Origin: Escherichia phage UE-S1
Sequence record: ON568341.1
DNA length: 64,000 nt
Reading direction: 5' to 3' (one strand)
Of the stretch, positions 9,777 to 54,285 are shown one piece after another (the stretch's first letter is position 1; the number at the start of each line of letters is the position of its first letter). The notes beneath the pieces were generated by a model, which was given only the letters and a program-made list of their open reading frames with translations, did no database searches and was not told the DNA's origin. The position numbers and the translations under genes were made by a program.

Positions 9777-10931
9777 TTATTCGTTATAGCCAACAATAAC
9801 TACTGAGCAGTCAAGTGGTTCACCAACTTTTACAATTACGTTATCATCTTCATCAACTTGTAAATCACTATGAATTACCTGTTTATCAGAAGAATACAAT
9901 TGAACTTGTGGAAGTGCTTTACCATGTTCAGTTGCAGGAATGGATAGAGAATACATTGAGTCTTCATCATGTTTCCAATCACTTAACGCATATTCCTTGT
10001 GGAACGGTGTAGTATGTAGAGTTTTACCCATAATACGTAAAGATATAGGAGAATTATCAGTTTGTTGTACTGTAATATTACCTTTATCATCAACTGACAT
10101 ATCAACGCCTATTTGATGGGAATCCCCATTATATGTTTGGAGAACCAATTTATGTCCACGTTTATGAACATCATATGGTACTACAGCAGAGAATGCACCA
10201 TCAGGTGATGGTTGAAAATCTGACAAGTGAACAGGTGTAACAAAATCTACATCTTCACCATGTTCCTGAACATCAAACTCAACAACTTTAGTATTATAAT
10301 ATGGAGAAGTTAGGGTAGCAGTACCTTTTCCTTTTTGTGTAATTGCATCAACTTGGATTGTAAATGTATCACCAGCAAATTGAGTAGTAGTGTATTCTGT
10401 TCCTTCAGGTAAAACAATTTTGATTTCCATTGAATTGGTATCAATTTCGGAACCAGCATTGAATAACTTACCACTAATTGATTTGTCACCAACAAATACA
10501 GGTGAAATAATAATATTATCTATATCACGATCAATAATACTACATTCAGGTGTGTACATATTGTAAAGAGTTTTTGAACTTCCTAATATTGTTTTATGTA
10601 ATAGGAATTTATATACAAAGCCAGTATCAGCCTCTTGATGGTCATCCGAATGTCCACGAACAAAGAAACTATTTTTATTAATTTCACTTAATAGTTCGTC
10701 AGTTGATTTACTATAATTTAATAGATAACCTTTATTATCTTTTGTTGTTAATTGGACTTTACGATAGATTATATTAGTTCTAGGATCAACTAAATCATAT
10801 AATTTATGACTTCTCTGACGATAGATTCTAATATTTTTTAGTTTAGATCCGTCATTAAGAATCGCACCATCAACGATATAACCACATTCACCAAACTTAT
10901 ATCTTCCAGCCGCTGCAATTGATCTTGACAT
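9777..10931 (-). CDS. hypothetical protein (384 aa)
   Basis: Track ORF on minus strand, GGAGGAAT RBS, convergent with 8926-9735. Confidence 0.6.
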   Translation of the reverse strand: MSRSIAAAGRYKFGECGYIVDGAILNDGSKLKNIRIYRQRSHKLYDLVDPRTNIIYRKVQLTTKDNKGYLLNYSKSTDELLSEINKNSFFVRGHSDDHQEADTGFVYKFLLHKTILGSSKTLYNMYTPECSIIDRDIDNIIISPVFVGDKSISGKLFNAGSEIDTNSMEIKIVLPEGTEYTTTQFAGDTFTIQVDAITQKGKGTATLTSPYYNTKVVEFDVQEHGEDVDFVTPVHLSDFQPSPDGAFSAVVPYDVHKRGHKLVLQTYNGDSHQIGVDMSVDDKGNITVQQTDNSPISLRIMGKTLHTTPFHKEYALSDWKHDEDSMYSLSIPATEHGKALPQVQLYSSDKQVIHSDLQVDEDDNVIVKVGEPLDCSVVIVGYNE

Positions 10932-38788: not shown

Positions 38789-39439
38789 ATGATGAAATCA
38801 AAATTAGGTTTGTTTTATGGAAACTACTTCATTAAACAGCGTAAATTCATAAAAAAATACTTCTCTACAGAGAAATCTAGTCCTCTAATTTTTAAAAGAC
38901 CAAAATATAATTTTTACTTAGCTGGTGCTAAACAGTCTAAGAAATTCATTACATTTTTAAATAAAAACAAAATTAAAGCTTCTTATGTTGAAACCAGAAA
39001 GAACTCATCAATAATTCCTGGTGATTTTATTGAATACGGATGTTTCAATATTAAGCACAATGATAACACATACTTTATGGATATTGATTGTAATACATCA
39101 AATCTTTTTAACATTGTAATAAATCCATCAAAACAATATAATGTTTATGGTGATTCAATTATCAAATTAATAAGAAACAAAGATTGGTTTGATTTTGAAA
39201 TAAATGTTTTAGATGAAAACTTTGATGAAGTTCCAGTTAATCCTGAAATATGTGATATATTAAACAGTTTAAAAGGTAGTAGCTACAATATACCATCTGA
39301 TTTAATGTTCCAGTACTCATTAATCCATAAAGATATTGAACAGTACATTATGTGTGCTAAAATCTTGAATTATCTGTATGATGAATTTAAAATGAGTTCT
39401 AAAATAACAGCATATACTCTTTATAATATTTCTATATAA
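38789..39439 (+). CDS. hypothetical protein (216 aa)
   Basis: Track ORF, AAGGAG RBS. Confidence 0.55.
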   Translation: MMKSKLGLFYGNYFIKQRKFIKKYFSTEKSSPLIFKRPKYNFYLAGAKQSKKFITFLNKNKIKASYVETRKNSSIIPGDFIEYGCFNIKHNDNTYFMDIDCNTSNLFNIVINPSKQYNVYGDSIIKLIRNKDWFDFEINVLDENFDEVPVNPEICDILNSLKGSSYNIPSDLMFQYSLIHKDIEQYIMCAKILNYLYDEFKMSSKITAYTLYNISI

Positions 39440-39480: not shown

Positions 39481-40626
39481 TTATTTTTTCCAAGGAAGTA
39501 ACGAAGTTGGAATCTTGATAGGTATATTTGATGCAGCAACATCAGGAAAATTTGCATCTCCACAAACATACAAATTATCGATTTCGTCAATCAATAATGT
39601 ATAGTTGTAACTTCTACAAAAACCGCTTAAGCCTCTTCCCTCTAATGCAGATAAATTCATTTCAGTGAATTGAGTTATATATGTTTCATTTGAACCAACA
39701 CCACATTGACCATTAGCATTTATACCACAAGTAAGCAATTTATTATTGTTTTGAATTACACATGATGGTCCAGCAAGGTTCGTACCTAGTTCACCTACAA
39801 CATTAACTTCACCTTTTAATGATAAATTTTGGATCACTGTACTCATAGGGACACGCGATGTATTTCCAACACCTGCTTGTCCTGAGCCATTAGTGGATGC
39901 AACTTTAACAGTACCGTCATTAAGAAAAATATAAGATGTTTCGATGGTATTAACTGCTTGTGTAGCTGTTGTTATTGTCGTATCCTGCTTGAATTTAAGT
40001 ACATTTGTTGTTGTTGAACCAGATATAAATGTAGCACCTGCGTACCAATAGGTTCCATCTTGAAGTACTAAACCAGTACTTCTAATTGAACACCCTGCAC
40101 TGCGAACATTTTCTATATGACTATATGTAAAGGTTGATACGATTGAAGATTCACCATTACCGAACACCCCACCAGTACCTGCACCACAGAAAAACCATTT
40201 ACCGTTTTTCAAAAATACACGCATACAAGCAGAAATAACCACACTATCAATATCACTTGCAGCTACACCAAAATCGGTAAAGAAATGAGTTATATCAATC
40301 CAATTACCACCAGTATTTGATGGGAGATGGGGAATTACAACTCTAGTCCCTGTGTACCAGATTGTATCATCATCTTTAATAACAAGAGTACCTTGAACAC
40401 CACCCCAATACCTTGTTACATTTGTATTAACAAGCCTCCACTCAGTAGATGATTCAGTGGAGCCATTACCACCTTGACCATAAGATGATGAGCCGTGCCA
40501 GTATAAATTTCCATTTTTATCTAAATAAAATTTTGCATCAGCCGAACATTGCAATCTGTATTTGAATACGGTTTTTGGTGCTGGTGCAATATTTGCATAT
40601 TTTAGCATTCTACCAAAAGGTAACAT
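39481..40626 (-). CDS. RCC1-like beta-propeller protein with conserved MLPFGRM N-terminus (array member 9, most downstream)
   Basis: N-terminus MLPFGRMLKYANIAP; repeats such as GSSSYGQGGNG, CGAGTGGVFGNG, CGINANGQCGVG. Confidence 0.7.
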   Translation of the reverse strand: MLPFGRMLKYANIAPAPKTVFKYRLQCSADAKFYLDKNGNLYWHGSSSYGQGGNGSTESSTEWRLVNTNVTRYWGGVQGTLVIKDDDTIWYTGTRVVIPHLPSNTGGNWIDITHFFTDFGVAASDIDSVVISACMRVFLKNGKWFFCGAGTGGVFGNGESSIVSTFTYSHIENVRSAGCSIRSTGLVLQDGTYWYAGATFISGSTTTNVLKFKQDTTITTATQAVNTIETSYIFLNDGTVKVASTNGSGQAGVGNTSRVPMSTVIQNLSLKGEVNVVGELGTNLAGPSCVIQNNNKLLTCGINANGQCGVGSNETYITQFTEMNLSALEGRGLSGFCRSYNYTLLIDEIDNLYVCGDANFPDVAASNIPIKIPTSLLPWKK

Positions 40627-40665
40627 AATTTTTCTCCTTCATTCATTATACTGTATTTAATCCAA

Positions 40666-40693
40666 TTAAGAAAAGCTAGTATCAAGTACTGGC
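40666..40693 (-). terminator. inter-cassette hairpin plus T-run
   Basis: GCTAGTA-TCAAG-TACTGGC with T-rich tract on minus strand. Confidence 0.5.
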
Positions 40694-40704
40694 ATTTAAA
40701 AGAA

Positions 40705-41880
40705 TCAAATTGTCGGAAGTGGGAATTCTTTCATCACCGATGAACTGTTTGCTGCAATATTATCAGGAGATTTACCAGCGTAGTATAATTTATTATTAAT
40801 AAACATATATAGCGTTGCATCGTTCCCTGCTACAAGAGAATTACTTTTCTTAAAAATAACCCCTGGGGGTAAAATAGCTTCAACAAATGAACCTGATTCT
40901 CGTGTTGAATTGTTTGCCAATTGACCATTATTATTATAACCAGTACTATAAATTTTACCTGAACTATAATACACAAGACCACGTGTACTAATGTTTTCTA
41001 TACGAATGAATTCACTATCGTCCGGTACTGTAGTTGATAGAACTGGGTATAACTTATAAGCTGATGTTACATTATTATTACCCAATTGACCATAACCTTG
41101 AAAGCCTAGTGCATACATAGGACATGATTCTGGTGTACCTTTTGTTATAATACCAATATAATTCGAACTACAAAAAATATCCACTGCTTCTACAACATTT
41201 GTACCCTTATATTGAACCCAAGGAAATACATATGATTGTTGTTTGCCATTACCCAAAACACCGGAAGTTGTTGTACCTGTACGCCACATTGTATCATCAA
41301 GTTTAATAATCCAGTTAGCAGTTGTTATAGTTGAACAGAATTTTTTAACATTATCAACCAAGTATGTAAATTTATTATAATATGATGCAGTGTTTATTCC
41401 AAATTTAGCACCAGTATTGTCACCTAACAAATATAAACTATTATCTGTACCTAAAATCAAAACATAATCATGACCCACGTATATCTTTTTGATTTTTGAA
41501 ATACCAAATTGTGTAAAATAGCTGGTACATTCAGTGAATATTGTTACATGATTTGATGTATTATTACCTAGCCATTTATCTAAACCACTATAAAAGAACC
41601 TATCATCATTTGTGCGTATTAGACAAAAAGAATTATTTGTACTGCACCAGAAATCTTTGACATTACTATATATTTTTGTCCATTCAGTTACTTGATTAGT
41701 ATGACCTAAACCAAAAATTCCACCATTTTGTAGTCCCATAGCCCATATTGAACCATTTTTATCAAGAAGCATTGTGCATGTAAATGAATACCCACACGCT
41801 GGAGTAACTAATTTAACAAAATTGGGAATATATGGTAAAACTTTATTCCCATAATTCACCATTCTTCCAAAAGGTAACAT
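40705..41880 (-). CDS. RCC1-like beta-propeller protein with conserved MLPFGRM N-terminus (array member 8)
   Basis: MLPFGRMVNYGN; repeats GYGQLGNNN, NNNGQLANNS. Confidence 0.7.
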   Translation of the reverse strand: MLPFGRMVNYGNKVLPYIPNFVKLVTPACGYSFTCTMLLDKNGSIWAMGLQNGGIFGLGHTNQVTEWTKIYSNVKDFWCSTNNSFCLIRTNDDRFFYSGLDKWLGNNTSNHVTIFTECTSYFTQFGISKIKKIYVGHDYVLILGTDNSLYLLGDNTGAKFGINTASYYNKFTYLVDNVKKFCSTITTANWIIKLDDTMWRTGTTTSGVLGNGKQQSYVFPWVQYKGTNVVEAVDIFCSSNYIGIITKGTPESCPMYALGFQGYGQLGNNNVTSAYKLYPVLSTTVPDDSEFIRIENISTRGLVYYSSGKIYSTGYNNNGQLANNSTRESGSFVEAILPPGVIFKKSNSLVAGNDATLYMFINNKLYYAGKSPDNIAANSSSVMKEFPLPTI

Positions 41881-41916
41881 ATTCTCTCCTTATTCATTAT
41901 AATATATATTTAATAC

Positions 41917-41948
41917 AAATAATAATGCCAGTACTCAAATACTGGCAT
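41917..41948 (-). terminator. inter-cassette hairpin plus T-run
   Basis: ATGCCAGTA-CTCAA-ATACTGGCAT. Confidence 0.5.
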
Positions 41949-41953
41949 TATTA

Positions 41954-43144
41954 TTACAATTGTCTAGGTGTATCCAGAACATATCTATTTGTGCTAGGAC
42001 CGCCATCATCATAAGTTCCGGTTGAATATATATTTTTCATATCAGCAGTTAGAAATGTACGATACGAACCTCTATATATTTTTATTTTATCATACATATT
42101 ATATGTAATTTGTGCTGGCATTGGACATATAGTAAATCTTCCAATAGTCCCCACTGAACCTACCCCCAATGAGCCAGCATAACTACTCGCATTTAAACCA
42201 GTTGCATATACACCAGAACTCGTAACTAGTATACTAGATTGTGATGGGTATCCAGTATGAATTGAATACAAAGTTCCAGGTGGTAATGTCGTACTATTTC
42301 TCCCTAATACAGCAAGTGCCGAACTGGATGTGGTATTATTACCCCATGCACCATTACTTGCTAAACCACCAACTAGGAACTGACGTACACCCGTACTTGG
42401 ATTTTCCACCAAAGCACTGACTGAACCCATTGAGCATCCAGTGTATTGTAACGTTTTTGTGTATGTTGTACTTGGCTGATATAAAGTATATTCATTATAT
42501 AAAGTCCATGTAGTACTGGAACTTATACCGGATGTACCACCACCAATATATAAATTATTTTGTTTATCAAACAACATTACACAGTTATTTGTTGACATTA
42601 TTTGTGCAATATCAACATTAGGTGTTACTGCTTTTACAAATGAACCATCTGTTATTTGTTGAGTTTTTCCAGTACCATCAGCGAATTGTCTAGCCCCACT
42701 CCAACCAGTACTCCATATTGTATTATTATCCATTAAGAAAGTAAACCACGTAGTACCTGCATACATCTGTTTAATTGAAGTACTTGAACTTTGTTTGTAC
42801 AAATTTTCAATATATTGGTTATAACTTAAAAATGATGTAGTACTGGTTGGTAAACCAATATGACTACCAAATCCACAATAGAAATAATTTAAGTCATTAT
42901 CTTGAACTAACAAAGTTCCTTGTGTGATCCAGCAATCATTAACGTTTTCTCTAATTAATGTCCATGTTCTTAATGCAGTGTTGTTTCCTCTCCCAAACTG
43001 CCCAAAACTATTATTACCTCGTGCATATAGTTGACCATCAGTATAAAGTACAACAACATCAGTATCGGTTGTTAGTATTTTCTTAATTTGAAGTGGGATA
43101 GGTACAATATTCCCGTACTTAACCATTCTTGCAAAAGGTAACAT
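41954..43144 (-). CDS. conserved-N-terminus family protein, beta-propeller-like (array member 7)
   Basis: MLPFARMVKYGNIVP; G/S/T/N-rich with NSFGQFGRGNN repeat. Confidence 0.65.
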   Translation of the reverse strand: MLPFARMVKYGNIVPIPLQIKKILTTDTDVVVLYTDGQLYARGNNSFGQFGRGNNTALRTWTLIRENVNDCWITQGTLLVQDNDLNYFYCGFGSHIGLPTSTTSFLSYNQYIENLYKQSSSTSIKQMYAGTTWFTFLMDNNTIWSTGWSGARQFADGTGKTQQITDGSFVKAVTPNVDIAQIMSTNNCVMLFDKQNNLYIGGGTSGISSSTTWTLYNEYTLYQPSTTYTKTLQYTGCSMGSVSALVENPSTGVRQFLVGGLASNGAWGNNTTSSSALAVLGRNSTTLPPGTLYSIHTGYPSQSSILVTSSGVYATGLNASSYAGSLGVGSVGTIGRFTICPMPAQITYNMYDKIKIYRGSYRTFLTADMKNIYSTGTYDDGGPSTNRYVLDTPRQL

Positions 43145-43180
43145 ATTTTCCTCCTTTATTCATTATACTATATTTAATCA

Positions 43181-43208
43181 AAAAGAAAAGCCAGTATCAA
43201 GTACTGGC
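43181..43208 (-). terminator. inter-cassette hairpin plus T-run
   Basis: GCCAGTA-TCAAG-TACTGGC; minus strand followed by TTTTCTTTT. Confidence 0.55.
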
Positions 43209-43215
43209 CTATATT

Positions 43216-43953
43216 TTAGACTGAATTGTTAGGATAATATCTCCCCCTTCCCCATATTATTCGCACAGCACCACCACCAGCAGCCGTATAAGAAGAATTA
43301 TCCCATATACTACCACCACCACCATACCTCTTACCAGCACCACCACTACCAGCACCACCATTATATGAACCACCGTAGCTACCACCAATACCATTAGCAC
43401 CTTGAACAATGATACCAGTACCACCACCCGTACCAATGAACGAGGTACTATAGAATGTACCACCCCCACCGCCGCCACCAGCACCATTTTCACCAGTGAT
43501 TGCATCTCCGTTACCACCTTTACCAGTGTAGCCACCAGCACCACCACCAATGACTGCACCACCACTTACACCAGTGTTGCCACCATTACCACCACCATCA
43601 TTAATAGCGTTAGCAGCTTTTCCACCTAGTCCACCAACCGTATATGCACCAGTGAAGCTAACACATAGTTTTTCAGTTCCACGATATAAACCGTTTTCAA
43701 CTGCTGTAGTAGTGTTGGGATGTGTAAGAGAAACACTTAAGTACTCACCACCAGAAACCGGAATATTATTACGCCACGATAAGCCGCCACCAGCACCACG
43801 TTGACCACCCGGCGAAATAACACATACTGATATTTCGGTAACGCCAGCAGGAACTGTAAATTGTGTTGTTCCTATTGTCGTGATTAATTGTTCACCATGT
43901 GGCTTATATTCAATTTTATTCCCGAACTTAACCATTCTTCCAAAAGGTAACAT
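43216..43953 (-). CDS. conserved-N-terminus family protein with glycine-rich body (array member 6)
   Basis: MLPFGRMVKFGN then long GGxGG tracts. Confidence 0.65.
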   Translation of the reverse strand: MLPFGRMVKFGNKIEYKPHGEQLITTIGTTQFTVPAGVTEISVCVISPGGQRGAGGGLSWRNNIPVSGGEYLSVSLTHPNTTTAVENGLYRGTEKLCVSFTGAYTVGGLGGKAANAINDGGGNGGNTGVSGGAVIGGGAGGYTGKGGNGDAITGENGAGGGGGGGTFYSTSFIGTGGGTGIIVQGANGIGGSYGGSYNGGAGSGGAGKRYGGGGSIWDNSSYTAAGGGAVRIIWGRGRYYPNNSV

Positions 43954-43990
43954 AATTCCCTCCTTTATTTGTTATACTATATTTAATACA

Positions 43991-44018
43991 AAAAGAAAAG
44001 CCAGTACTCAGTACTGGC
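43991..44018 (-). terminator. inter-cassette hairpin plus T-run
   Basis: GCCAGTACT-CA-GTACTGGC. Confidence 0.55.
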
Positions 44019-44024
44019 ATAATG

Positions 44025-45167
44025 TCAATAAGTATCCCAAGGTAATGGTGTCTTCCTAAATCCATACCTGGTTGTGCTCGCACCATCACCAGCAATGTAT
44101 CTACCTATACCACATTGGTATAACTCTGTACTACTACATATAGCACCACCTATAGTACCACTACTCCACTGAATTATATTAGAATATGTTATTGGTAAAT
44201 CACTACATTTAGTATATACAGCAACGGTAGAAGCACCACTAATACCACCAAACATACTTCGCTTAGCACCAGTGTAATATATACCATCTGGACTCATAAA
44301 TGCAGAGGTGTAAGTTGTACTGCAATCCACTGGACTTCTTATTGTATTAAGATCGCCTGGATATGTTCTGACACCAAAGGTGTATACATTACCATCAGTT
44401 GTAATACCATTACCTAACTGCCCACTGTTTTGTCCACCACATGTAAGCAACGATGCAGAACCAGAAACAATTGCAGTAGCATTATACGAAGTGCCCATTG
44501 CAATAGAAGCACCAGACAATAGTTTTGGAGTAACAATAGCTGTTGTATTACCCTGGCCTAATTCACCATTTGTGTTTCGTCCCCATGCGTATATGGAAGT
44601 AGTATCCAACCTACATAGTACTGAACCATAACTAAACGTATATCGCATGTCAATTACCGCAGAAGGCAAATTAACCTTAGTTGCAACACTAATAACACCA
44701 CCAGTAACACCACTGTTTGCGTTCATGTTACGACCATATGCATATAAAGAACCATCTGAAGTTTTAATATGCATCATACCATCTGTACAATATAATGCAT
44801 CTATACTCTCCACCGCAACCGGACCCATACTGGTAGTTATATCGGTCCACCCAAGAGTAGTAGTACTAGAAATTAAGTTATTTCCTGCGTATAGTATTCT
44901 ATTATTATTAGTAACTACAACTGTATATCTGGCAGTAACACCAATTAATCGAACATCAGTATATATCTTAGACCACGCACCTAATGAATTGGTGTTTGCA
45001 TCCAAAAAGCCCAACTGCCCATCTGTATTGTATCCAATGCCCCATACATCACCTGCACTGTCCAATAACACTTCATGTGAAAATCCAATCTTAAAATCTT
45101 TTATTGTAGGAACTACCGGATCTGGTGCAATATTCCCGTACTTAACCATTCTAGTAAAAGGTAACAT
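44025..45167 (-). CDS. RCC1-like beta-propeller protein with conserved N-terminus (array member 5)
   Basis: MLPFTRMVKYGNIAP; repeats GYNTDGQLGF, GRNTNGELGQGN, GGQNSGQLGNG. Confidence 0.7.
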   Translation of the reverse strand: MLPFTRMVKYGNIAPDPVVPTIKDFKIGFSHEVLLDSAGDVWGIGYNTDGQLGFLDANTNSLGAWSKIYTDVRLIGVTARYTVVVTNNNRILYAGNNLISSTTTLGWTDITTSMGPVAVESIDALYCTDGMMHIKTSDGSLYAYGRNMNANSGVTGGVISVATKVNLPSAVIDMRYTFSYGSVLCRLDTTSIYAWGRNTNGELGQGNTTAIVTPKLLSGASIAMGTSYNATAIVSGSASLLTCGGQNSGQLGNGITTDGNVYTFGVRTYPGDLNTIRSPVDCSTTYTSAFMSPDGIYYTGAKRSMFGGISGASTVAVYTKCSDLPITYSNIIQWSSGTIGGAICSSTELYQCGIGRYIAGDGASTTRYGFRKTPLPWDTY

Positions 45168-45203
45168 AATTCCCTCCCTTATTCATTATAATATATTTAA
45201 TAC

Positions 45204-45234
45204 AAAAAAGAAAAGCCAGTACTTGAGTACTGGC
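45204..45234 (-). terminator. inter-cassette hairpin plus T-run
   Basis: GCCAGTACT-TG-AGTACTGGC. Confidence 0.55.
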
Positions 45235-45240
45235 ATTATG

Positions 45241-46350
45241 TTATTTTGGTAAATCAATTTTAGTAAAGACTGCAACATCCTCGCTTGCCCCAGGAATGGC
45301 GTAATACGATCCAGTACTATATACATCTCCGTCTTTGGTTAATATTGATGTTAAACCATCACTAAAAAGAACATCCCTAATCTCACTAACTTCAACGGGT
45401 AATTGTAAATTAGTAGCACTATATATTGCACCAGTTTGAGAATTGTTTAATCCCAAACCACGGTTCGCCCCAACACCCTTCTGATATGTACTAGTAATTA
45501 TCATTTGTGTAGCAGTATTTAAGGCAGGTGAATTCGTCATAAACAACGGAGAACTATTAGGCAAAGTACTTGCAGGAACTGCACGAAATGAAGTTGTATC
45601 TGAACTAAGAAAGTTTGGCGTTTGACCACATACGAAATATGATGTACCATTATAGTAATTAAATGCATTACCACCAATGACTGCATCGATTACACCAGAG
45701 CTACGTAATCCCCACGTGTTAATTTGTGTTCGGTTCCCCGTGCCATGCTGACCCCTGTCATTCCACCCAGAACTATATAACTTATTATCTAATGTAATAT
45801 ACATACTGTCATTTGCATTCGTCATTACTTTACGCACATTAGTAGCACATTGAGTTAATGTGTAAATTGATGATGAACCAATACCTAAAGCACCACGATA
45901 TCCATTAGCTCCTGCACCATAGAGTACTGAACTAGTGCTAAGTACAAATATTAAACCATACGAACATACAATATTAGCAATTTCACTCACTGGTATAGCA
46001 CTGGTAAACCAATTAGTTCTTTCAACTAATACTGTGCTGTAAGAAGTAGTTGTAGACGATGTGAACCAATATGTTTCCCCTGATGTCCATATAGTATTAT
46101 CATTTTTAATAATAACAAGTGCACGATCACCTACGAAAAAATTAGAAACATCTGCACTTACTAATATCCATGAAGATACCGTGTTTTTATTACCATTTCC
46201 AGATTCACCACCTTGATTTCTACCTATGTAATATAAATCATGTGAATCAGTTAATAAGAATTGACCCTGTGTAGATGCACCAACTTTAATTATATTTTTA
46301 GGACCAGGTACAATATTCCCATAATCAAACATTCTTACAAAAGGTAACAT
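45241..46350 (-). CDS. RCC1-like beta-propeller protein with conserved N-terminus (array member 4)
   Basis: Track ORF to 46365; start moved to internal ATG (MLPFVRMFDYGNIVP) with GGAG 9 nt upstream. Confidence 0.65.
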   Translation of the reverse strand: MLPFVRMFDYGNIVPGPKNIIKVGASTQGQFLLTDSHDLYYIGRNQGGESGNGNKNTVSSWILVSADVSNFFVGDRALVIIKNDNTIWTSGETYWFTSSTTTSYSTVLVERTNWFTSAIPVSEIANIVCSYGLIFVLSTSSVLYGAGANGYRGALGIGSSSIYTLTQCATNVRKVMTNANDSMYITLDNKLYSSGWNDRGQHGTGNRTQINTWGLRSSGVIDAVIGGNAFNYYNGTSYFVCGQTPNFLSSDTTSFRAVPASTLPNSSPLFMTNSPALNTATQMIITSTYQKGVGANRGLGLNNSQTGAIYSATNLQLPVEVSEIRDVLFSDGLTSILTKDGDVYSTGSYYAIPGASEDVAVFTKIDLPK

Positions 46351-46387
46351 AACTAAAATCTCCATATAATAATTATAATGTATTTAC

Positions 46388-46420
46388 AAAAAAATACCAG
46401 CACATATTTCAGTACTGGTA
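46388..46420 (-). terminator. inter-cassette hairpin plus T-run
   Basis: TACCAG..AGTACTGGTA stem with T7 on minus strand. Confidence 0.5.
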
Positions 46421-46425
46421 TAATG

Positions 46426-47607
46426 TTATGGTAAAATAATAGCTTGTAACGAACTCATACCCAATGTTGGAACACTCGCCTGTGGTGCTGGAGAATTCAA
46501 TTTTGGTGATGAAACCGCATATGACATTCCTGAACCCAAATCTGGATCAAAAACTACAGCACAATAATTCCCACTATATATAAGTCCATTCTTGTATCCT
46601 TGTGCACTTTGAATGCATTTCGTGAACGTACCAATATCTGTAGTGGCATTTATTAAGTTCCTCCCACGATAACCGCAGGTGTATATGAAATTATCATCGC
46701 CTATGTACATACTAGAATCCCCAGAAGAACTACATAGATACGACATATAAGCACGCATGTTTTTAGGAGCAACTGACAATGTACCTGCATAGAATTTATT
46801 ATTCGAACCCGTAATATTACCATCACCCAATGCACCAAAACTTCCCCAGCCAGTACCGTAATATCTCTTATCACTCAAAAATATAATACAGTTGTTATTA
46901 CACATCTTGATTTGATATATCAATGAAGGATCAATCCCAGGGAATGATTCAGTGAATGTTAGAACAGCCGGATCAGTACTAGCATTACATTGATGATATG
47001 TATTAGTACCAGCGGACAAGATTGTTCCATTAGCTAACAGAATTCTCGCAGTACCAGTACCAGCAGTACAAGCAACTGCACTTCCTGCACTTCCGGTGTA
47101 TATTTGTCTGAAAGTAAAGAAACCAACAGTTTTACTTCCCTGCCCACTCCAACCAGTATTATCAACTCCACACGCCCATACTGAACCATCTTGCATGATC
47201 ATCATTACACCAAAGCGTTCTATTGAAATATAAACAATCTTCGTTGTATCAACTGCACTAAATCTAGAAGTTATATCAGTCCATACCTTAACACTTACCG
47301 CCGTCGCACTGGAAGTAGGATCTTCACCAGCTATCATTATCCTCCCATTGTTAGTAAGATACATTGTCTGACTATAACCAGTACTACAAAACTTAACACT
47401 ATCAGTCTCTGGAACTTTTAACCACTCGTTGTAACGTGTTACGTTAGTGTTATTACCTAACTGATAATAGTTATTCATCCCAGATACATATAACACACCA
47501 TCCTTTATTAAACTATAAGTCGCACTATAGTCACTACAGGTATAACGTGTACCCACAGGTGGCTCAACGACGTTCCCGTACTTAACCATTCTCCCAAAAG
47601 GTAACAT
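46426..47607 (-). CDS. RCC1-like beta-propeller protein with conserved N-terminus (array member 3)
   Basis: MLPFGRMVKYGNVVEP; repeats NNYYQLGNN, DNTGWSGQGS, GSFGALGDGN. Confidence 0.7.
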   Translation of the reverse strand: MLPFGRMVKYGNVVEPPVGTRYTCSDYSATYSLIKDGVLYVSGMNNYYQLGNNTNVTRYNEWLKVPETDSVKFCSTGYSQTMYLTNNGRIMIAGEDPTSSATAVSVKVWTDITSRFSAVDTTKIVYISIERFGVMMIMQDGSVWACGVDNTGWSGQGSKTVGFFTFRQIYTGSAGSAVACTAGTGTARILLANGTILSAGTNTYHQCNASTDPAVLTFTESFPGIDPSLIYQIKMCNNNCIIFLSDKRYYGTGWGSFGALGDGNITGSNNKFYAGTLSVAPKNMRAYMSYLCSSSGDSSMYIGDDNFIYTCGYRGRNLINATTDIGTFTKCIQSAQGYKNGLIYSGNYCAVVFDPDLGSGMSYAVSSPKLNSPAPQASVPTLGMSSLQAIILP

Positions 47608-47642
47608 AATAAAATCTCCGTAATTAAATTATATAGTATTTA

Positions 47643-47676
47643 CAAAAAATACCAGTACATATTTCAGTACTGACCT
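47643..47676 (-). terminator. inter-cassette hairpin plus T-run
   Basis: CAGTAC-loop-GTACTG palindrome with T-run. Confidence 0.5.
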
Positions 47677-47680
47677 ATTA

Positions 47681-48802
47681 TTAAAAGGGCAACGGTAACT
47701 CAGTAAAAGTACTTACGTCCGGTAAACCATACATTAAATTAGCATCACCACAGTAATACCACTTCGTAGAATCATGTACCACCGATAAACGCTGTGCACA
47801 TAACACTTCCTGTATGTCATTAAACACCATCGGGACTAACTCATATGTATCTGCAAATGAAGATTCACTACCACTCGCATGAAAAGTATTTGTCCCAGCA
47901 TAAAATAACTGATTAGTGTTCTTACCCACAGCAAATGTTATCAAAACCCCATCATTCTCCCATAAAGAAGAAAACTTATCAACACTACCAGAAAGCTCTG
48001 TGTAAGTACTCGTAATGGCACTCGCCGCCGCCGCATTACCCATCTGTTTATTCAAGTTCTGTCCAGCAATAAAATATCTCGTTCGTGCACTAGAATCAGT
48101 ATATAATAACCCAGTGTTCGTAGTCATCATTCCAATGTCCTTAATCGTCATATCAGTCTGTGAATAACTTAGATACGAAGTTAAATTAACATTATTACCC
48201 AACGAACCGTTAGAACTCATGCCACAACGATGTAATATACCACTTGTATCAACGTAGATAGTACTAACTAAACTCGTATACAACTCTTGTACATTATTCG
48301 CAATAAACACAGCAGTCGCCTTATTACTAACCCCACCAAATGATAGGTTATTATCAAATCCCTTAGCGTATAATTGATTATTAGTAGTCAATAATCCAAT
48401 CGTGTAATAAGACATTTTCATATCCCTTACTGTACTCAAATCTACTGCCCCAAATTGATACGTAACATCTGTCCATTTGAAAATCTGTGCACTACCAACA
48501 CCACCCGTTTCAAACCATTTGTCACCACAGTACAATATGCGATTATCCTTAGTAAAGATAACTGTTAACAATCCACTACCACACGCAAACTTTACATCAC
48601 TTCTAACCTTCGTCCAATCAAGTACATAGGTAGTGGTGTTATTACCTATACCTAACTTGCCATAACGGTTATAACCACGCACCCATAAATCACCACTCTT
48701 AGTAATTAATAGTAATGCGTCTCCTGTACTTATTATTCGAAATCCCGAACTAGGATCAGGGGCAATATTCCCGTACTTAACCATTCTCCCAAAAGGTAAC
48801 AT
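47681..48802 (-). CDS. RCC1-like beta-propeller protein with conserved N-terminus (array member 2)
   Basis: MLPFGRMVKYGNIAPDP; repeats GYNRYGKLGIGNN, SSNGSLGNN. Confidence 0.7.
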   Translation of the reverse strand: MLPFGRMVKYGNIAPDPSSGFRIISTGDALLLITKSGDLWVRGYNRYGKLGIGNNTTTYVLDWTKVRSDVKFACGSGLLTVIFTKDNRILYCGDKWFETGGVGSAQIFKWTDVTYQFGAVDLSTVRDMKMSYYTIGLLTTNNQLYAKGFDNNLSFGGVSNKATAVFIANNVQELYTSLVSTIYVDTSGILHRCGMSSNGSLGNNVNLTSYLSYSQTDMTIKDIGMMTTNTGLLYTDSSARTRYFIAGQNLNKQMGNAAAASAITSTYTELSGSVDKFSSLWENDGVLITFAVGKNTNQLFYAGTNTFHASGSESSFADTYELVPMVFNDIQEVLCAQRLSVVHDSTKWYYCGDANLMYGLPDVSTFTELPLPF

Positions 48803-48837
48803 ATTTTCCTCCTTTATTCATTATACTATATTTAATA

Positions 48838-48869
48838 CAAAAAGAAATGCCAGTATCAAGTACTGGCAT
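48838..48869 (-). terminator. inter-cassette hairpin plus T-run
   Basis: ATGCCAGTA-TCAAG-TACTGGCAT. Confidence 0.55.
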
Positions 48870-48875
48870 ATTAAT

Positions 48876-50024
48876 TCATTGTATAAATGACATATCTACT
48901 TCTGTATAATTAAGAACGTTCTGTCCAGAAATACCACCCATTACTACTATTGCAAGGCCACAATAATATAATTTTCCAGTATCCGTAAGTATAAGTGATC
49001 CAGATGGACTGCGTACCAAATCACACGAACTATTAAAAGAAGTATAAGAAGGAGTATAGGAGTACTGATTATTATTATTACCAACACCTAATTGCCCAAA
49101 CCCATTCGATCCAGAAGCATATAGAACTTCATCTGCTTTGACAATATGTGATGCCATGTTACCAACACAAGTATATAGAGTATAAACTCCTGAACTCAAT
49201 AATGTCGGAGTTTTATATTGTATATCTGTAGATGTAGAAGTACCACCTGTACCAAATTCGTTCCCATATTGTGCACCGAACTGTTTGCCACAAGCGTACA
49301 AATTATTATCCGATTTGATAAAAAATGTACTCTGATAACTTACATTAAAATCTATAACATCCGAAGAAATCATCGTCACCCCAGTAATAGAAGTTTGATT
49401 ACCCGTGCCCAACTGGTAGTAATAGTTAAAACCACAACCCCATAAAGTATTATCTTCTCGCAAATAAATGTTACCAACTGCCTTTTTAACCGAAGTTATA
49501 GTATCTACTCTTTTGAATGTGTTAAAAGAATTAATGTTTGTACCATCACCAAATGATGATATGTTCGATATATTGTTAACTCCACAACAATACAATGTAC
49601 CATCTTTTGTTATCAAATTCACCTTCATATCATAAAAACTACTCATGTATTTTATATCAGAAACATTAACACCACTTGATGTTATCCACGTAGTACAGTC
49701 CGTCCACAAAGTTTTTCTATCAGTTACACCAGTGAATGCCTTCGTGTTACCAGTGATAAAAACTTTTCCAGTACCTTTCTCTTCATACAATTGACAATCA
49801 CTACTGTTATCTTCCAATAGAACTCGTTTAACATTCTCCGCACAAAGAATAAATTTACTCGATGCTACACCTGTACCAGTACCCCAATTCGTCGCAGAAG
49901 ATGCATACAACTTATCAGTATAAGTATCATGAAGATACATAGAATCACTGGAATATATTTTAAAACGCCCTTCTTTCTCAGGTATAATATTCCCGTACTT
50001 AACCATTCTCCCAAAAGGTAACAT
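48876..50024 (-). CDS. RCC1-like beta-propeller protein with conserved N-terminus (array member 1, most upstream)
   Basis: MLPFGRMVKYGNIIPE; repeats GFNYYYQLGTGN, GSNGFGQLGVGNN. Confidence 0.7.
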   Translation of the reverse strand: MLPFGRMVKYGNIIPEKEGRFKIYSSDSMYLHDTYTDKLYASSATNWGTGTGVASSKFILCAENVKRVLLEDNSSDCQLYEEKGTGKVFITGNTKAFTGVTDRKTLWTDCTTWITSSGVNVSDIKYMSSFYDMKVNLITKDGTLYCCGVNNISNISSFGDGTNINSFNTFKRVDTITSVKKAVGNIYLREDNTLWGCGFNYYYQLGTGNQTSITGVTMISSDVIDFNVSYQSTFFIKSDNNLYACGKQFGAQYGNEFGTGGTSTSTDIQYKTPTLLSSGVYTLYTCVGNMASHIVKADEVLYASGSNGFGQLGVGNNNNQYSYTPSYTSFNSSCDLVRSPSGSLILTDTGKLYYCGLAIVVMGGISGQNVLNYTEVDMSFIQ

Positions 50025-50066: not shown

Positions 50067-50095
50067 TTGACACCCTTTCAGTACTGTTGTACAAT
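50067..50095 (+). promoter_or_regulatory. sigma-70-type promoter (TTGACA-17-TACAAT)
   Basis: TTGACACCCTTTCAGTACTGTTGTACAAT in divergent intergenic region. Confidence 0.5.
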
Positions 50096-50120
50096 AGAAG
50101 GAATATTAGGAGAACTACAT

Positions 50121-50348
50121 ATGACAAATACCCTTAAGTACTACCTCAATACTCTGCCCGACCTAGAGTACGGGAAGTTTCTCGCAGATAGTTCGTGGCT
50201 GATTGAGCTAAAAAAATATAATAGTCCCGGATGCACCCTTATGATGAACAATGCAATTGATACCCTTATAGTGAGTATTTTACATAGCAACATCTACGGG
50301 GATAACAATAAACAATTAACAAAAATCTTAGTACTGCTATCTCTATGA
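50121..50348 (+). CDS. small protein, tandem paralogue family C
   Basis: Track ORF trimmed to ATG after AGGAG; N-terminus MTNTLKYYLNTLP. Confidence 0.5.
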   Translation: MTNTLKYYLNTLPDLEYGKFLADSSWLIELKKYNSPGCTLMMNNAIDTLIVSILHSNIYGDNNKQLTKILVLLSL

Positions 50349-50557
50349 ACACTATGAGCACTGAACAGTTCTACATCAATGCACTACCAACTAAAAGTCT
50401 TCAAGAAAGCTTACTGTATACACAAAAGAATTTTAAAAACTTCAAACGTTGCCCTAAACTACTGAACTCGTACAGGAATAATATTATAAGAAATGTTTTA
50501 CAAGGAGAAGAAAGTATGCAATACTATCACATCCTTATACTTATATTGGAGTACTAA
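50345..50557 (+). CDS. small protein, family C
   Basis: ATGA overlap; ends LILILEY. Confidence 0.5.
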   Translation: MNTMSTEQFYINALPTKSLQESLLYTQKNFKNFKRCPKLLNSYRNNIIRNVLQGEESMQYYHILILILEY

Positions 50558-50558
50558 T

Positions 50559-50768
50559 ATGAATACTGAACATAAAGAATTCTACACCAAATACCTCAGT
50601 AACGAAGAACAATTGTTTCTAAGAAGTGTATCACCGGTAAGTACCAATACTCAATTCGGTAGAGATTGCTTTAATAATTGTATACGTAGTACCCTAGAAG
50701 CAATCGAATATAATAACAAAAATATTATGTACTCAGGTTTAATAGGACTAATATTCTTCTATGAATAA
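50559..50768 (+). CDS. small protein, family C
   Basis: Start in TACTAATATGAATA junction; MNTEHKEFYTKYL ... LIFFYE. Confidence 0.55.
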   Translation: MNTEHKEFYTKYLSNEEQLFLRSVSPVSTNTQFGRDCFNNCIRSTLEAIEYNNKNIMYSGLIGLIFFYE

Positions 50769-50955
50769 TCATAAAGATTTCTATGGTAGTAAACTACACA
50801 AACATGAACAGCTATCATTCTCTTTAGCACCACCTATGAGAAAGGATAATCTATATTATAATTACGATTTCAGGATGGCGACACGTTATGCAATAGAACA
50901 TCAGTTCCCTGAAACTAAGTACCGCTCTATCCTGAACCTCATCTTTAAGTTCTAA
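50761..50955 (+). CDS. small protein, family C
   Basis: MNNHKDFYGSKL ... LIFKF. Confidence 0.55.
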   Translation: MNNHKDFYGSKLHKHEQLSFSLAPPMRKDNLYYNYDFRMATRYAIEHQFPETKYRSILNLIFKF

Positions 50956-51002
50956 AAACAGCACCAGGGTCCGAGTACTTTAACATAGTAAGGCTAATTA
51001 CA

Positions 51003-51188
51003 ATGAATCATATACGCTACTATTACCAACAACTATCCGACAGGGACAAGTACAGCCACAATTCCCATGTATGGTACTACAAACGCGGCAGTATAAGAGA
51101 CAAACAACATTACTTCTGTATTTCTATTAAAGAAGCACTAACAACTAAGTACACGTACAGAGCAGTACTTAAACTAATCTCTATCTAA
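51003..51188 (+). CDS. small protein, family C-like
   Basis: Track ORF in array. Confidence 0.45.
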   Translation: MNHIRYYYQQLSDRDKYSHNSHVWYYKRGSIRDKQHYFCISIKEALTTKYTYRAVLKLISI

Positions 51189-51196
51189 GGAATACT

Positions 51197-51376
51197 ATGC
51201 AAGAATTCTATATAGAACATATAACCATAAAAGACCGTTTCATGTACCACACCTTCGTGAAATACTACAAACTGGGAACAAAAAGTACTAAAAATATTAA
51301 TCTCAATAGCTGCATTCATTCTGCACTAACAAAAGATAATCCCTTCAGGGAAATCCTCGCACTAGCATCTGTATAA
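51197..51376 (+). CDS. small protein, family C (59 aa, below track cut-off)
   Basis: ATG after AAGGAATACT; MQEFYIEHI. Confidence 0.45.
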   Translation: MQEFYIEHITIKDRFMYHTFVKYYKLGTKSTKNINLNSCIHSALTKDNPFREILALASV

Positions 51377-51386
51377 AGGAAACCAA

Positions 51387-52046
51387 ATGAAACTTAATGC
51401 ACACAGCAAACAATACCTTAAGCACTTTAAGTACCTCAACAGTATTCAAGCAGAATCTTTTACACCAGCATATACGTATCACCCTAATGTACTAAAGAAA
51501 CGAAATAAAAAGAAAAAATCCAGAAATGTTCTCGTATCTAAGAACCTCAAATCGTACTTGAAGAAAAATAATATAGCTCTTGCTTTTATTAATATCTATA
51601 ATACTGATTTAAAAGTATTGAGTACTAATACCAGCACAAAAGCACTAAAGAATGCATCTATCTATATACACATGGATAATATCCCGTGCACTATAATTCT
51701 ATCTTCCGGGAATGTATACTTCTTCGGGAATTGTAATAGCACCCATGATATCAGTACTGCACAATTCCAAATCGGAGATATGTACTGCATGGGTTCAGAA
51801 AAAATACACGATAATATGCACTTCTTCCAAAAGCAACGTACTAACGAAACTGATACAGTACTGCAATTCCTCAAAGAACTAGAACACAAAGAATTATCCG
51901 AGGAAGAAGAATTCATGTACAGTACTGTAATCGATAATCCAGGACTCTATAAAAACGCGTACAAACTAACAAAACATGTACAGGAACTTATCAGTACTGA
52001 TAAGAAAATTCATCACCTCATTACGTATATTTCAAACTATGTATAA
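51387..52046 (+). CDS. hypothetical protein (219 aa) within family C array
   Basis: Track ORF; basic N-terminal region. Confidence 0.5.
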   Translation: MKLNAHSKQYLKHFKYLNSIQAESFTPAYTYHPNVLKKRNKKKKSRNVLVSKNLKSYLKKNNIALAFINIYNTDLKVLSTNTSTKALKNASIYIHMDNIPCTIILSSGNVYFFGNCNSTHDISTAQFQIGDMYCMGSEKIHDNMHFFQKQRTNETDTVLQFLKELEHKELSEEEEFMYSTVIDNPGLYKNAYKLTKHVQELISTDKKIHHLITYISNYV

Positions 52047-52221
52047 AGAATACTACATAGAGAAACTCCCAATGCATCTACAACACCATATACCAAACGT
52101 TGCATTGGGCATAACCGAGCACGCAAAGATAATGTTCCAACAATGTACTAAGTACACGCTCATATACGATGATAATCCATATATGCTGTACTACGTAGTA
52201 ATGCTAACATTCAGGTACTAA
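52039..52221 (+). CDS. small protein, family C
   Basis: Track ORF trimmed; MYKEYYIEKLPMHL ... TFRY; ATGTATAA overlap. Confidence 0.55.
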   Translation: MYKEYYIEKLPMHLQHHIPNVALGITEHAKIMFQQCTKYTLIYDDNPYMLYYVVMLTFRY

Positions 52222-52222
52222 T

Positions 52223-52402
52223 ATGAATACTTATAAAGAATTCTACCTCTCGTACCTTAATTCCGATATAGTAACATCCAATACATTCAGTACTAAAATT
52301 ATCTATAATGAAGTAATGAAAGAATGTATTAAAGGTGCTATTAACCCTAAAGATACGTATGACTTGTACTATGCAGTACTAACCCTTGTTTTCACGAAAT
52401 AA
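52223..52402 (+). CDS. small protein, family C (59 aa, below track cut-off)
   Basis: TACTAATATGAATA junction; MNTYKEFYLSYL. Confidence 0.5.
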   Translation: MNTYKEFYLSYLNSDIVTSNTFSTKIIYNEVMKECIKGAINPKDTYDLYYAVLTLVFTK

Positions 52403-52410
52403 CACATAAT

Positions 52411-52602
52411 ATGAATAACCACAAAGAATACTACATAGAGAAACTCCCAATGTATCTCCAACACCTTCTACCAACAGAACCATTGCGTATAGAAAAAAAC
52501 TACGAAAAAGACTACTTCATTCAGTGCACTAAATCCTCGATATATATTGAAGACTATAATCGAGTACTGTATCACATCCTTTTACTAATATATAAGTACT
52601 AA
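52411..52602 (+). CDS. small protein, family C
   Basis: MNNHKEYYIEKLPMYL ... LLLIYKY. Confidence 0.55.
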   Translation: MNNHKEYYIEKLPMYLQHLLPTEPLRIEKNYEKDYFIQCTKSSIYIEDYNRVLYHILLLIYKY

Positions 52603-52603
52603 T

Positions 52604-52792
52604 ATGAATAACCACAAAGAATACTACACACAATTTCTCCCCAGCATTTTGGAACAATACGCCAGATATAAAGTCCCCCTCGATAACGATTTGGCAGTAC
52701 TGGGATTCAATAACTGCATAGAACGAAGTATAGAAAATAGTAATAGCTATGAACAATTATATAACACTATCCTACTTATATTCAGGTACTAA
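52604..52792 (+). CDS. small protein, family C
   Basis: MNNHKEYYTQFLP ... LLIFRY; TAATATG coupling. Confidence 0.55.
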   Translation: MNNHKEYYTQFLPSILEQYARYKVPLDNDLAVLGFNNCIERSIENSNSYEQLYNTILLIFRY

Positions 52793-52793
52793 T

Positions 52794-52982
52794 ATGTATA
52801 AAGAATACTACGCAAAATATTTCCCAATGTATCTCAGAACTAATCTATTAGATAAACCTCGCGATATCAATGCACAAAACGATAAAGTGTACTTTATTAT
52901 GTGCACTAAAGCATGTATACTAGATCATGACAGCTACCATCGAGTACTGTATCATACACTGTACCTAGCTTTCGTATACTAA
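52794..52982 (+). CDS. small protein, family C
   Basis: Track ORF trimmed; MYKEYYAKYFPMYL ... LAFVY. Confidence 0.55.
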   Translation: MYKEYYAKYFPMYLRTNLLDKPRDINAQNDKVYFIMCTKACILDHDSYHRVLYHTLYLAFVY

Positions 52983-52983
52983 A

Positions 52984-53042
52984 ATGTACTCCGGTTTAAT
53001 AGGACTAATATTCTTCTATGAATAATCATAAAGATTTCTACA
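52984..53042 (+). repeat. 59-bp near-identical direct repeat of 50728-50786 (gene-junction duplication)
   Basis: ATGTACTC(A/C)GGTTTAATAGGACTAATATTCTTCTATGAATAATCATAAAGATTTCTA present twice. Confidence 0.8.
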
Positions 53043-53197
53043 TAAGCCATCTGGATATAAACTCCCAAATGCTTATACTACTAAACACAATAGATTTCAA
53101 GGATAAGAAAAAGATCCAACAATTCATTGACCATACGGACCGTGCTGTGAACCAAAATTATATGTACTACATTCTCGCCCTAATATACAGGTACTAA
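53018..53197 (+). CDS. small protein, family C (59 aa, below track cut-off)
   Basis: MNNHKDFYISHL ... LALIYRY; preceded by duplicated junction. Confidence 0.5.
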   Translation: MNNHKDFYISHLDINSQMLILLNTIDFKDKKKIQQFIDHTDRAVNQNYMYYILALIYRY

Positions 53198-53198
53198 T

Positions 53199-53384
53199 AT
53201 GCATAGAGAATACTATATACAATTTGTTAAAGAAAACTACAAACACGCCGTCCCCGTAAACCCTTTAAATTCTAATGACCCAAGTACTATATTCTTGTTC
53301 CATGACGCAATACGTACAGTACTCAATACTAAAGATGAACAAGTGCAGTACGTATTCTTACTTTTACTTATATACAGACACTAA
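53199..53384 (+). CDS. small protein, family C
   Basis: MHREYYIQFV ... LLLIYRH. Confidence 0.55.
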   Translation: MHREYYIQFVKENYKHAVPVNPLNSNDPSTIFLFHDAIRTVLNTKDEQVQYVFLLLLIYRH

Positions 53385-53397
53385 AGCACTAACTAAT

Positions 53398-53598
53398 ATG
53401 AATAAAGAATATAAAGACTTCTATATAAGTAAACTAAAAGAAAATGAACAAGCATGGATTCAACCACTAATAATACTTCCATTTAATAGATATTCATTGA
53501 ACCGATGTACCGAGATTGCTATAGACCCTTGTCCTATTAAAGAGAATGTACAATACAATCAGTACTACTATATCTTAATGCTTATATATAGGAAGTAA
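53398..53598 (+). CDS. small protein, family C
   Basis: Track ORF trimmed; MNKEYKDFYISKL ... LMLIYRK. Confidence 0.55.
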   Translation: MNKEYKDFYISKLKENEQAWIQPLIILPFNRYSLNRCTEIAIDPCPIKENVQYNQYYYILMLIYRK

Positions 53599-54285
53599 TT
53601 AAACACATATAGACAGGGGAAGCTCCGTAGTGGAAGCATTATACAGGCTTTAACATATGTTGCATATGTTAAAATTCAGCCTGGACAAATGCGATCACTA
53701 GGATTCTCCCCAGGCTAAACCCCGTAACTCTACAGAGAAGCCAATAGCTTCTCTTTGTCATAGGTAGTCATAAGTAATCATATATAAACATTTAAGTAAT
53801 CATTCATACGCACGGTAGTGATTAGTATTGAGTACTAGAGTACAGGAATGTTCACGTTTAATCAAGAACGTAGCAGTACTGCCCCAAAAGTATTCAGTAC
53901 TGAAGGTGTCGATATCCCACTAAGTAGGCAGAGGAAGTCTGCCGTACTTTGTAGTTTCCAAGCTCCTTTTCCATTTTTCAAATTACATCAAATGTATTCA
54001 AAAGTAATCACGTAATGATTAGTACTGAATTATTACTTTCACCTTAATTCCAAATACTCTTTTACCCTTCGGGGAAAATCCCATTACCCCTTGAGGCTCC
54101 AGCAAAAAGTTGGAAAGTACTCCATCGTAAATCTGGATCGTAAAAATTTTGGAGTACCTATGAAATAAAAGTTGGATCTTCGAAAGTTGAAATTTACGTT
54201 GGGACATATAGGATTGATGGGATATAATGAGTTTTGTAGAGATACAGATTATACGATTTCAGTACTGAATAATGAAAGAAAGCTA

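Follow-up and report, generated by a model that had tools for sequence, protein, structure and literature searches.

A tagged glycine-rich protein with a predicted TNF-like/polyglycine fold in the RCC1-like gene array of Escherichia phage UE-S1

The tagged gene array and its glycine-rich member

The DNA analysed here, referred to as the window, is a 64,000-nt stretch (one strand) of the genome of Escherichia phage UE-S1 (ON568341.1), a jumbo coliphage of the Asteriusvirus (121Q/phAPEC6-like) group. It contains an array of nine genes, oriented head-to-tail, which all start with the same 12-residue tag. Eight of these genes match RCC1-like families, whereas the ninth, the subject of this work, has no RCC1 match in Pfam or PHROG and encodes a glycine-rich protein with the N-terminus MLPFGRMVKFGN. 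The features of the locus are:

39481..50024 (-), whole array of nine tagged genes, eight RCC1-like plus the glycine-rich gene
43216..43953 (-), CDS of the tagged glycine-rich protein, 245 aa, stop codon included (ORF list)
43918..43953 (-), first 12 codons, encoding the tag MLPFGRMVKFGN, common to nine window genes; pLDDT below 50 at residues 1-9
43897..43917 (-), variable linker, residues 13-19; pLDDT about 75 (residues 11-20), outside the family profile
43642..43896 (-), main part of the predicted TNF-like beta-sandwich, residues ~20-104, including the conserved motif GGGLSWRNNIPV.GE
43219..43641 (-), predicted glycine-rich (polyglycine-type) lattice, residues ~105-245
43958..43966 (-), Shine-Dalgarno-like AAAGGAGGG, 4 nt upstream of the ATG, conserved before all nine array genes
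43971..43988 (-), promoter-like box TATTAAATATAGTATAAC (TATAAT in the paralogues), from the alignment of the nine junctions
43990..44018 (-), hairpin GCCAGTACTGAGTACTGGC plus T-run, the terminator-like end of the upstream RCC1 gene (terminator scan)
43188..43210 (-), terminator-like hairpin plus T-run just downstream of the stop codon of the glycine-rich gene (terminator scan)

Glycine makes up 29.4% of the whole protein and 39.7% of residues 105-245, whereas, for the 74 ORFs of the window that reach 100 aa, the median is 4.75% and the runner-up has 12.4%. The protein is 99% identical to its counterpart in Escherichia phage Turkey3 and 95% identical to the 121Q and phAPEC6 orthologues. An initial sequence-only reading had reported that this array member keeps the tag of its neighbours while the beta-propeller is replaced. 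This observation is confirmed: the ORF begins with the tag, of which the window holds nine copies, and neither Pfam nor PHROG detects RCC1 repeats or a seven-bladed propeller in it.

The junction that separates the array genes is itself repeated, with a mean column identity of 77% over 131 columns. It consists, in order, of a terminator-like hairpin with T-run, which recurs between the array genes, the box TATTAAATA..TATAAT, the ribosome-binding site AAAGGAGG and the tag. Within the box, TAAATA and TATAA are invariant across the nine junctions, and a promoter role is suggested by this conservation. Each array gene would form its own transcription unit with a common terminator, promoter-like box, ribosome-binding site and tag junction. 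Junction DNA this similar probably also promotes recombination, by which genes would be duplicated and cassettes exchanged. At the other end of the genes, the C-termini of most RCC1-like members (39481-50024 (-)) share a second conserved element, a motif of the approximate form ...(T/K)x(P/D)LP(W/F/K)..., exemplified by KTPLPWDTY, LLPWKK, ELPLPF and KIDLPK, which the glycine-rich member lacks.

Reading frame and overlapping ORFs

The glycine-rich gene overlaps three further entries of the ORF list:

43257..43565 (-), ORF of 102 aa in another frame, Val-rich
43402..43629 (+), antisense ORF of 75 aa, Thr- and Pro-rich
43550..43804 (+), antisense ORF of 84 aa, Thr- and Pro-rich

The frame of 43216..43953 (-) is the right one, because it has 186 homologues in a collection of 5.8 billion proteins (many carrying PF21722), its family profile retrieves 8285 representative clusters, mostly terminal domains of proteins of 500-5000 aa, and its non-glycine motifs are conserved, namely GGGLSWRNNIPVTPGE, INDGGGNGGN, GGGAGGYTGNGG and GAVRIIWG.GR.YP. 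The outcome that would have overturned the initial reading, a wrong frame with one of the antisense ORFs as the real gene, was checked against these same homologues and motifs, and the frame holds. GGT accounts for 55 of the 72 Gly codons, and the antisense ORFs arise because these GGT-rich codons are read on the opposite strand; like the alternative-frame ORF, they are by-products of a coding sequence rich in GGT. The antisense ORFs had been called long artefacts; artefacts they are, as is the alternative-frame ORF, but at 75 and 84 aa their length is modest.

The same overlap has affected the annotation of a related genome. In phAPEC6 (MK817115.1), the annotated gp004 at 7716-8018, Val-rich and ~100 aa long, is the equivalent of the alternative-frame ORF, and the tagged glycine-rich ORF (7325-8059, 244 aa) is intact and unannotated. 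Since the gene was annotated in the wrong frame, the phAPEC6 virion proteome could not detect the glycine-rich protein.

Fold and family of the glycine-rich body

The AlphaFold2 (AF2) model of the protein, built from a 121-sequence alignment, is compact, with a mean pLDDT of 93.3 and a pTM of 0.89; values below 50 are confined to residues 1-9, and residues 11-20 reach about 75. According to this model, residues ~20-245 would fold as a TNF-like beta-sandwich with a polyglycine-rich 'brush' lattice, and the first 12 residues lie outside the fold as a flexible tag. The modelled beta-sandwich bears the glycine-rich lattice in three dimensions, and the C-terminal strand AVRIIWGRGRYYP goes back to the sandwich. 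The lattice contains the motifs INDGGGNGGN, GGGAGGYTGKGG, G7, GGGTG and YGGGG and shows the ~40% Gly (39.7% in residues 105-245) and the conserved GGGxGG motifs with invariant Gly columns that go with this architecture, and the location of orthologue differences in variable columns fits its variable loop tips.

The top structural relative is the tail fibre gp24 of cyanophage Pam3 (7ypx_A; score 12.8, 172 residues aligned), followed by the 'tail wing brush' gp33 of Bxb1 (score 9.2, 26% identity), the Bxb1 tail spike gp29 (8.6), human and invertebrate ALK glycine-rich domains (8.0), T4-type gp38 (3.8) and TNF ligands (about 3.5-4). A Foldseek search against the PDB likewise puts the Pam3 fibre at the top, followed by the ALK domain, and a BFVD search gave 70 viral matches named 'glycine-rich domain-containing protein'. 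The sole match by sequence in the PDB, to an antibody light chain (E 0.4), was dismissed as chance.

On the sequence level, the protein matches PHROG 4474 (E 9e-66), and the family profile begins near its position 24. An hmmscan of the protein against Pfam (E<=1) gave no match to any family, PF21722 (Gly_rich_2) included, and a search of NCBIfam gave no match. Homologues found at E 1e-15 to 1e-6 do carry PF21722. Furthermore, a tagged relative from an Erwinia phage, linked to the UE-S1 protein via a paralogue (32% identity), matches PF21722 directly. Membership in PF21722 is thus supported by transitive homology and the predicted fold. The identity of the body therefore rests on a high-confidence predicted structure plus homology, by which it is a conserved globular domain of the predicted TNF-like plus polyglycine-rich type and a new member of a known family.

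The initial reading had described the body as low-complexity, with glycine tracts reminiscent of fibre or collagen. The first description does not survive a pLDDT of 93, a pTM of 0.89 and 8285 homologue clusters. Of the second, the likeness to fibres stands in the form of the predicted TNF-like/polyglycine fold, and the likeness to collagen falls: composition and repeat analysis found no long G-X-Y repeats, the longest run being 4, and together with the globular predicted fold this rules out a collagen-like identity. A fibrous segment of collagen-like or low-complexity type is accordingly hardly credible as the nature of the body, and so is a wrong frame with the real gene among the overlapping ORFs. 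The high glycine content, the alternative ORFs that overlap the gene and the annotation of one of them in the phAPEC6 record would favour such a reading, but G-X-Y periodicity is absent, the AF2 model is confidently globular, thousands of same-frame homologues keep non-glycine motifs and the tagged ORF is intact in phAPEC6.

Pam3 gp24 consists of an N-terminal helical docking domain, a TNF-like domain and a glycine-rich domain with 39% Gly, the stem of the latter being conserved and its receptor-binding tips variable (PMC9608196). [quoted passage not shown] However, the alpha-helical shaft by which Pam3 gp24 trimerises and docks to the baseplate has no equivalent, as the AF2 model, a monomer prediction, contains no helical or coiled-coil trimerisation segment. 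Only the 12-residue tag and a 7-residue linker precede the fold, and sequence identity to Pam3 gp24 is 16%. The tail-wing brush gp33 of Bxb1 (PDB 9D93) shares the beta-sandwich/polyglycine architecture, but belongs to a siphophage of a Gram-positive-type host, lacks the tag and has other attachment partners. Further close systems are PF21722 (Gly_rich_2), the fold of the ALK/LTK glycine-rich domain and the polyglycine-rich domain of S16 gp38. The glycine-rich member can be regarded as an enterobacterial jumbo-phage case of the predicted TNF-like/polyglycine fold shared with ALK, reduced to a minimal tag and head.

Compared to 121Q, 21 nt differences lead to 13 aa differences, and compared to Turkey3, 12 nt differences lead to 6 aa differences. 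The residues that set the protein apart from its 121Q orthologue, 13 in all, lie in family columns of low conservation (mean 0.30 versus 0.54), and the nucleotide differences show no bias toward the third codon position. Although the numbers are small, this column placement and the absent third-position bias fit a diversifying binding surface, and the location in poorly conserved columns fits the conserved-stem, variable-tip design of Pam3 gp24. The mostly non-synonymous nature of the differences hints at relaxed or diversifying selection, although the sites are few.

Conservation of the tag within the genome and across jumbo phages

The tag DNA ATGTTACCTTTTNNNAGAATG occurs nine times in the window, each copy at a gene start in 39481..50024 (-), with 0 copies expected by chance (100 shuffles). 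Among the nine array genes, pairwise nucleotide identity is 87.5% over the first 36 nt and falls to 37% over the next 36 nt, and the RCC1 bodies share 20-25% aa identity with a reference paralogue. As in the glycine-rich protein, the tag of an RCC1 paralogue appears in the AF2 model (pLDDT 90) as a low-confidence extension outside the propeller. Within this genome, the synonymous sites of the tag are over-conserved, with the same codon in 247 of 293 pairs versus 134 expected from codon usage, and the uniform codons include the rare GGG and AAG. The conservation within the genome is therefore partly at the DNA level.

The distribution of the tag across phages was surveyed by degenerate DNA scans of IMG/VR, in which matches were found in only eight contigs of 348-378 kb, all of them jumbo phages. 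Tagged arrays occur in Pectobacterium phage CBB (Mimasvirus), Xanthomonas phage XbC2 and Erwinia phage pEa_SNUABM_12 (Eneladusvirus), where the tag precedes Kelch, Laminin_G_3/ConA-like, RCC1, fused RCC1 and Kelch and Gly-rich bodies and several without an assigned fold. The tagged set was defined by the pattern M-L-P-F-x-[RIQ]-[IML]-x-x-[YT]-[GN]-N at a true gene start in a tagged array, with which the UE-S1 glycine-rich protein also begins, and comprises 69 non-redundant proteins from sampled Rak2-like jumbo phage genomes. MLPF is invariant in all 69. Two variants can be distinguished, MLPF-x-[RQ]-phi-phi-x-Y-[GA]-N (54 proteins) and MLPFPIIS.T (15 proteins), both of which occur on several folds. 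The bodies fall into 13 BLAST clusters and include 36 RCC1-like, 9 Kelch, 8 Laminin_G_3 and 3 Gly-rich proteins, the rest being without an assigned fold. The earlier proposal that the tag is attached to at least two unrelated folds can hence be widened to at least four (RCC1, Kelch, Laminin_G_3 and Gly-rich), and the bodies that carry it are ligand-binding folds.

Three tagged proteins, of 667-688 aa, are encoded at 359-2425, 6416-8416 and 1903-3930 of loci L010, L018 and L023, respectively. In the first of them, from XbC2 and the one that was scanned individually, one N-terminal tag precedes an RCC1-like propeller and a Kelch propeller joined in a fusion, so that two heads can share a tag.

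The tag codons differ between genera (CCT/CCA/CCC, GGG/GGA/GGC, TAC/TAT, TTA/CTA), and the tagged genes of CBB and XbC2 abut or overlap and lack the promoter cassette. Because of these codon differences and the missing cassette, the conservation across genera is at the level of the peptide. In addition, metagenomic relatives with bodies that are 28-67% identical retain MIPF/MLPF..YGN. These data bear on a reading that is very unlikely and already largely refuted by the cross-genus codons, in which the peptide has no function and is the by-product of a repeated DNA junction, maintained by duplication, gene conversion or selection on the mRNA. The 131-column junction with its 77% identity in the window and the over-conserved synonymous sites, rare GGG and AAG included, are what such a process would leave behind; against it, the peptide is kept with different codons in other genera, in CBB and XbC2 arrays that have no promoter/terminator cassette, and in the metagenomic relatives mentioned above. 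The peptide is thus a portable element, selected at the protein level and located outside the folds. This bears out the initial suggestion of a portable N-terminal module, which gains support from its occurrence in Asteriusvirus, Mimasvirus and Eneladusvirus and from the synonymous codon variation. A literature search for MLPF together with phage found no description of the tag.

Virion association and a proposed docking role

Mass spectrometry of phAPEC6 virions detected the RCC1 array proteins gp003, 005, 006, 007, 009 and 010 (PMC7247149), and several tagged Kelch/LamG array proteins were detected in purified CBB virions (PMC5259590). The tagged proteins detected in virions are thus RCC1 (phAPEC6) and Kelch/LamG (CBB) proteins, and do not include the glycine-rich protein. 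Detection in virions does not distinguish between an external and an internal location. Both phAPEC6 and CBB have unexplained hair-like appendages, which are a plausible location for tagged heads.

On balance, we favour the reading that the gene encodes a small virion-associated binding module and that the tag docks unrelated binding heads onto the particle. The tag would plug these ligand-binding heads into a common acceptor site, probably in the tail, the fibres or the 'hair' network, and the phage would thereby display a diversified panel of adhesins. The common acceptor is putative: within the 64-kb window no obvious candidate is present, and neither of the flanking genes (38789..39439 and 51387..52046) matches a Pfam family or gives a clue to an acceptor.

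An internal location would follow if the tag were a capsid-targeting signal of the T4 type, with the proteins loaded in the head and ejected to act on host targets. The peptide is indeed short and N-terminal, several tagged proteins are present in virions, and phAPEC6 has an inner body; the authors of the phAPEC6 study also suggested that RCC1 proteins might organise DNA (PMC7247149). We nevertheless consider this unlikely, as the bodies are lectin- or adhesin-type folds, the nearest solved relatives of the glycine-rich protein are external fibre tips, and the peptide counts in mass spectrometry are low, unlike those of bulk internal proteins. Moreover, the prohead-protease site ((L/I)-x-E) is not conserved in the tag, in which position 9 is K in the window and K, Q, N, E or another residue in the whole set (E in only 12 of 69 tags), and a T4-type protease-site reading is rejected for this reason.

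Similarly improbable is another role at the protein level, for instance that an assembly chaperone recognises the peptide, that it acts as a signal for folding or processing, or that it determines expression or stability. The peptide is conserved as protein without a known partner, and Pam3 gp24 does require a dedicated chaperone (PMC9608196). That chaperone, however, binds the distal domain rather than the N-terminus, a chaperone shared by four unrelated folds is unlikely, and docking explains more simply why many tagged proteins are incorporated into the virion together.

In GenBank and in papers the array goes under the label 'chromosome condensation regulators', and for the glycine-rich gene the annotation gives a hypothetical protein or a wrong frame. 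A role in DNA condensation finds no support in the present findings, which favour virion-displayed binding modules with one shared short N-terminal tag. The glycine-rich gene lies in the same array as the RCC1-like 'chromosome condensation regulator' genes of Asteriusvirus and has the same tag and junction cassette, but differs in its predicted fold. Recent papers still use the label for the array and list two of its members among the most divergent proteins between near-identical phages (PMC13070987). If the tag docks the heads as proposed, this would help to explain the high divergence of array members between such phages, would offer a concrete candidate for the assembly or decoration of appendages in the 'hairy' phages 121Q, phAPEC6 and CBB, and would provide a 12-residue handle for the display of foreign binding domains on jumbo phages.

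Comparison with branched receptor-binding protein systems

In branched systems (KP32 gp38, G7C gp63.1, CBA120 and phiKp24), a short conserved N-terminal peptide incorporates unrelated receptor-binding proteins (RBPs) (PMC13352976; PMC9700779). The first 29 residues of KP32 gp38, the 'conserved peptide', are needed for incorporation via the T4gp10-like branching domain of RBP1 and also accept an enzymatic domain of foreign origin as cargo (PMC13352976). Docking domains of this kind underlie the hyperbranched fibre system of phiKp24, a Rak2-like Klebsiella phage (PMC9700779). A short conserved N-terminal peptide on unrelated virion proteins is likewise found in the tagged set. However, the KP32 peptide extends over 29 aa and starts with MLDNFNQPKGSTIG (MLDNFNQPKG...), whereas the MLPF tag MLPFGRMVKYGN comprises 12 aa, and the two have no significant similarity, with only M-L in common. 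Homology of the tag to the KP32 peptide was rejected on these grounds, and the tag therefore represents an analogy to these systems rather than membership in them. The cargo also differs, small lectin-like heads being carried by the MLPF tag and large beta-helical depolymerases by the branched systems. Furthermore, the branched systems use a T4gp10-like acceptor, whereas the acceptor of the MLPF tag is putative, and a genome can hold up to 10-14 tagged genes.

A second N-terminal motif and other features of the window

Another short N-terminus, M-[LIF]-E-x-[LM]-[LM] (MFELLL, MLEMIM, MIELLA and others), occurs on the same folds in unrelated large myophages and is present on about 40 of the 120 homologues listed for the glycine-rich protein. 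It is found on Kelch and LamG proteins of Pseudomonas phage D6 (6863-13095), on LamG and Gly-rich (Gly_rich_2) proteins of Erwinia phage RAY (12001-12840 and 22966-23682), on the products of two tandem Gly-rich genes adjoining the terminase gene of an rV5-like contig, and at 9176-10744 of locus L003. A structural paper on phiTE does not mention a glycine-rich protein and gives no location for the MLE-tagged homologues. The motif may constitute an analogous tag system, and its presence on the same folds suggests that the tag-plus-head design is more general. We tentatively extend this to a broader reading, held with less confidence than docking in the present array, in which MLPF-x-R-phi-phi-x-Y-G-N would be a universal docking tag of Rak2-like jumbo phages that loads small lectin-like heads (RCC1, Kelch, ConA-like and polyglycine brush), combinatorial and fast-evolving as a set, onto the 'hairy' appendages or the fibres, with M-[LIF]-E-x-L-L as its analogue on these folds in other large myophages. 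If so, the two motifs would represent a previously unrecognised general system for adhesin display by short peptides, usable in phage engineering.

Three other regions of the window deserve mention. A lone minus-strand ORF of 384 aa at 9777-10931 (-), located among plus-strand genes, resembles the RCC1 paralogues in size and has neither the tag nor a Pfam match. A cluster of five tRNA genes at 71-4849 (+) includes one four-base anticodon call (tcat) and one tRNA-Ser with the anticodon ACT. Finally, the region 50067-53600 (+) holds a tandem array of about a dozen small paralogous genes, encoding proteins of 59-107 aa with common sequences at the N-terminus (MNNHKE[FY]Y...) and at the C-terminus (...L[IA][FY][KR][YF]).
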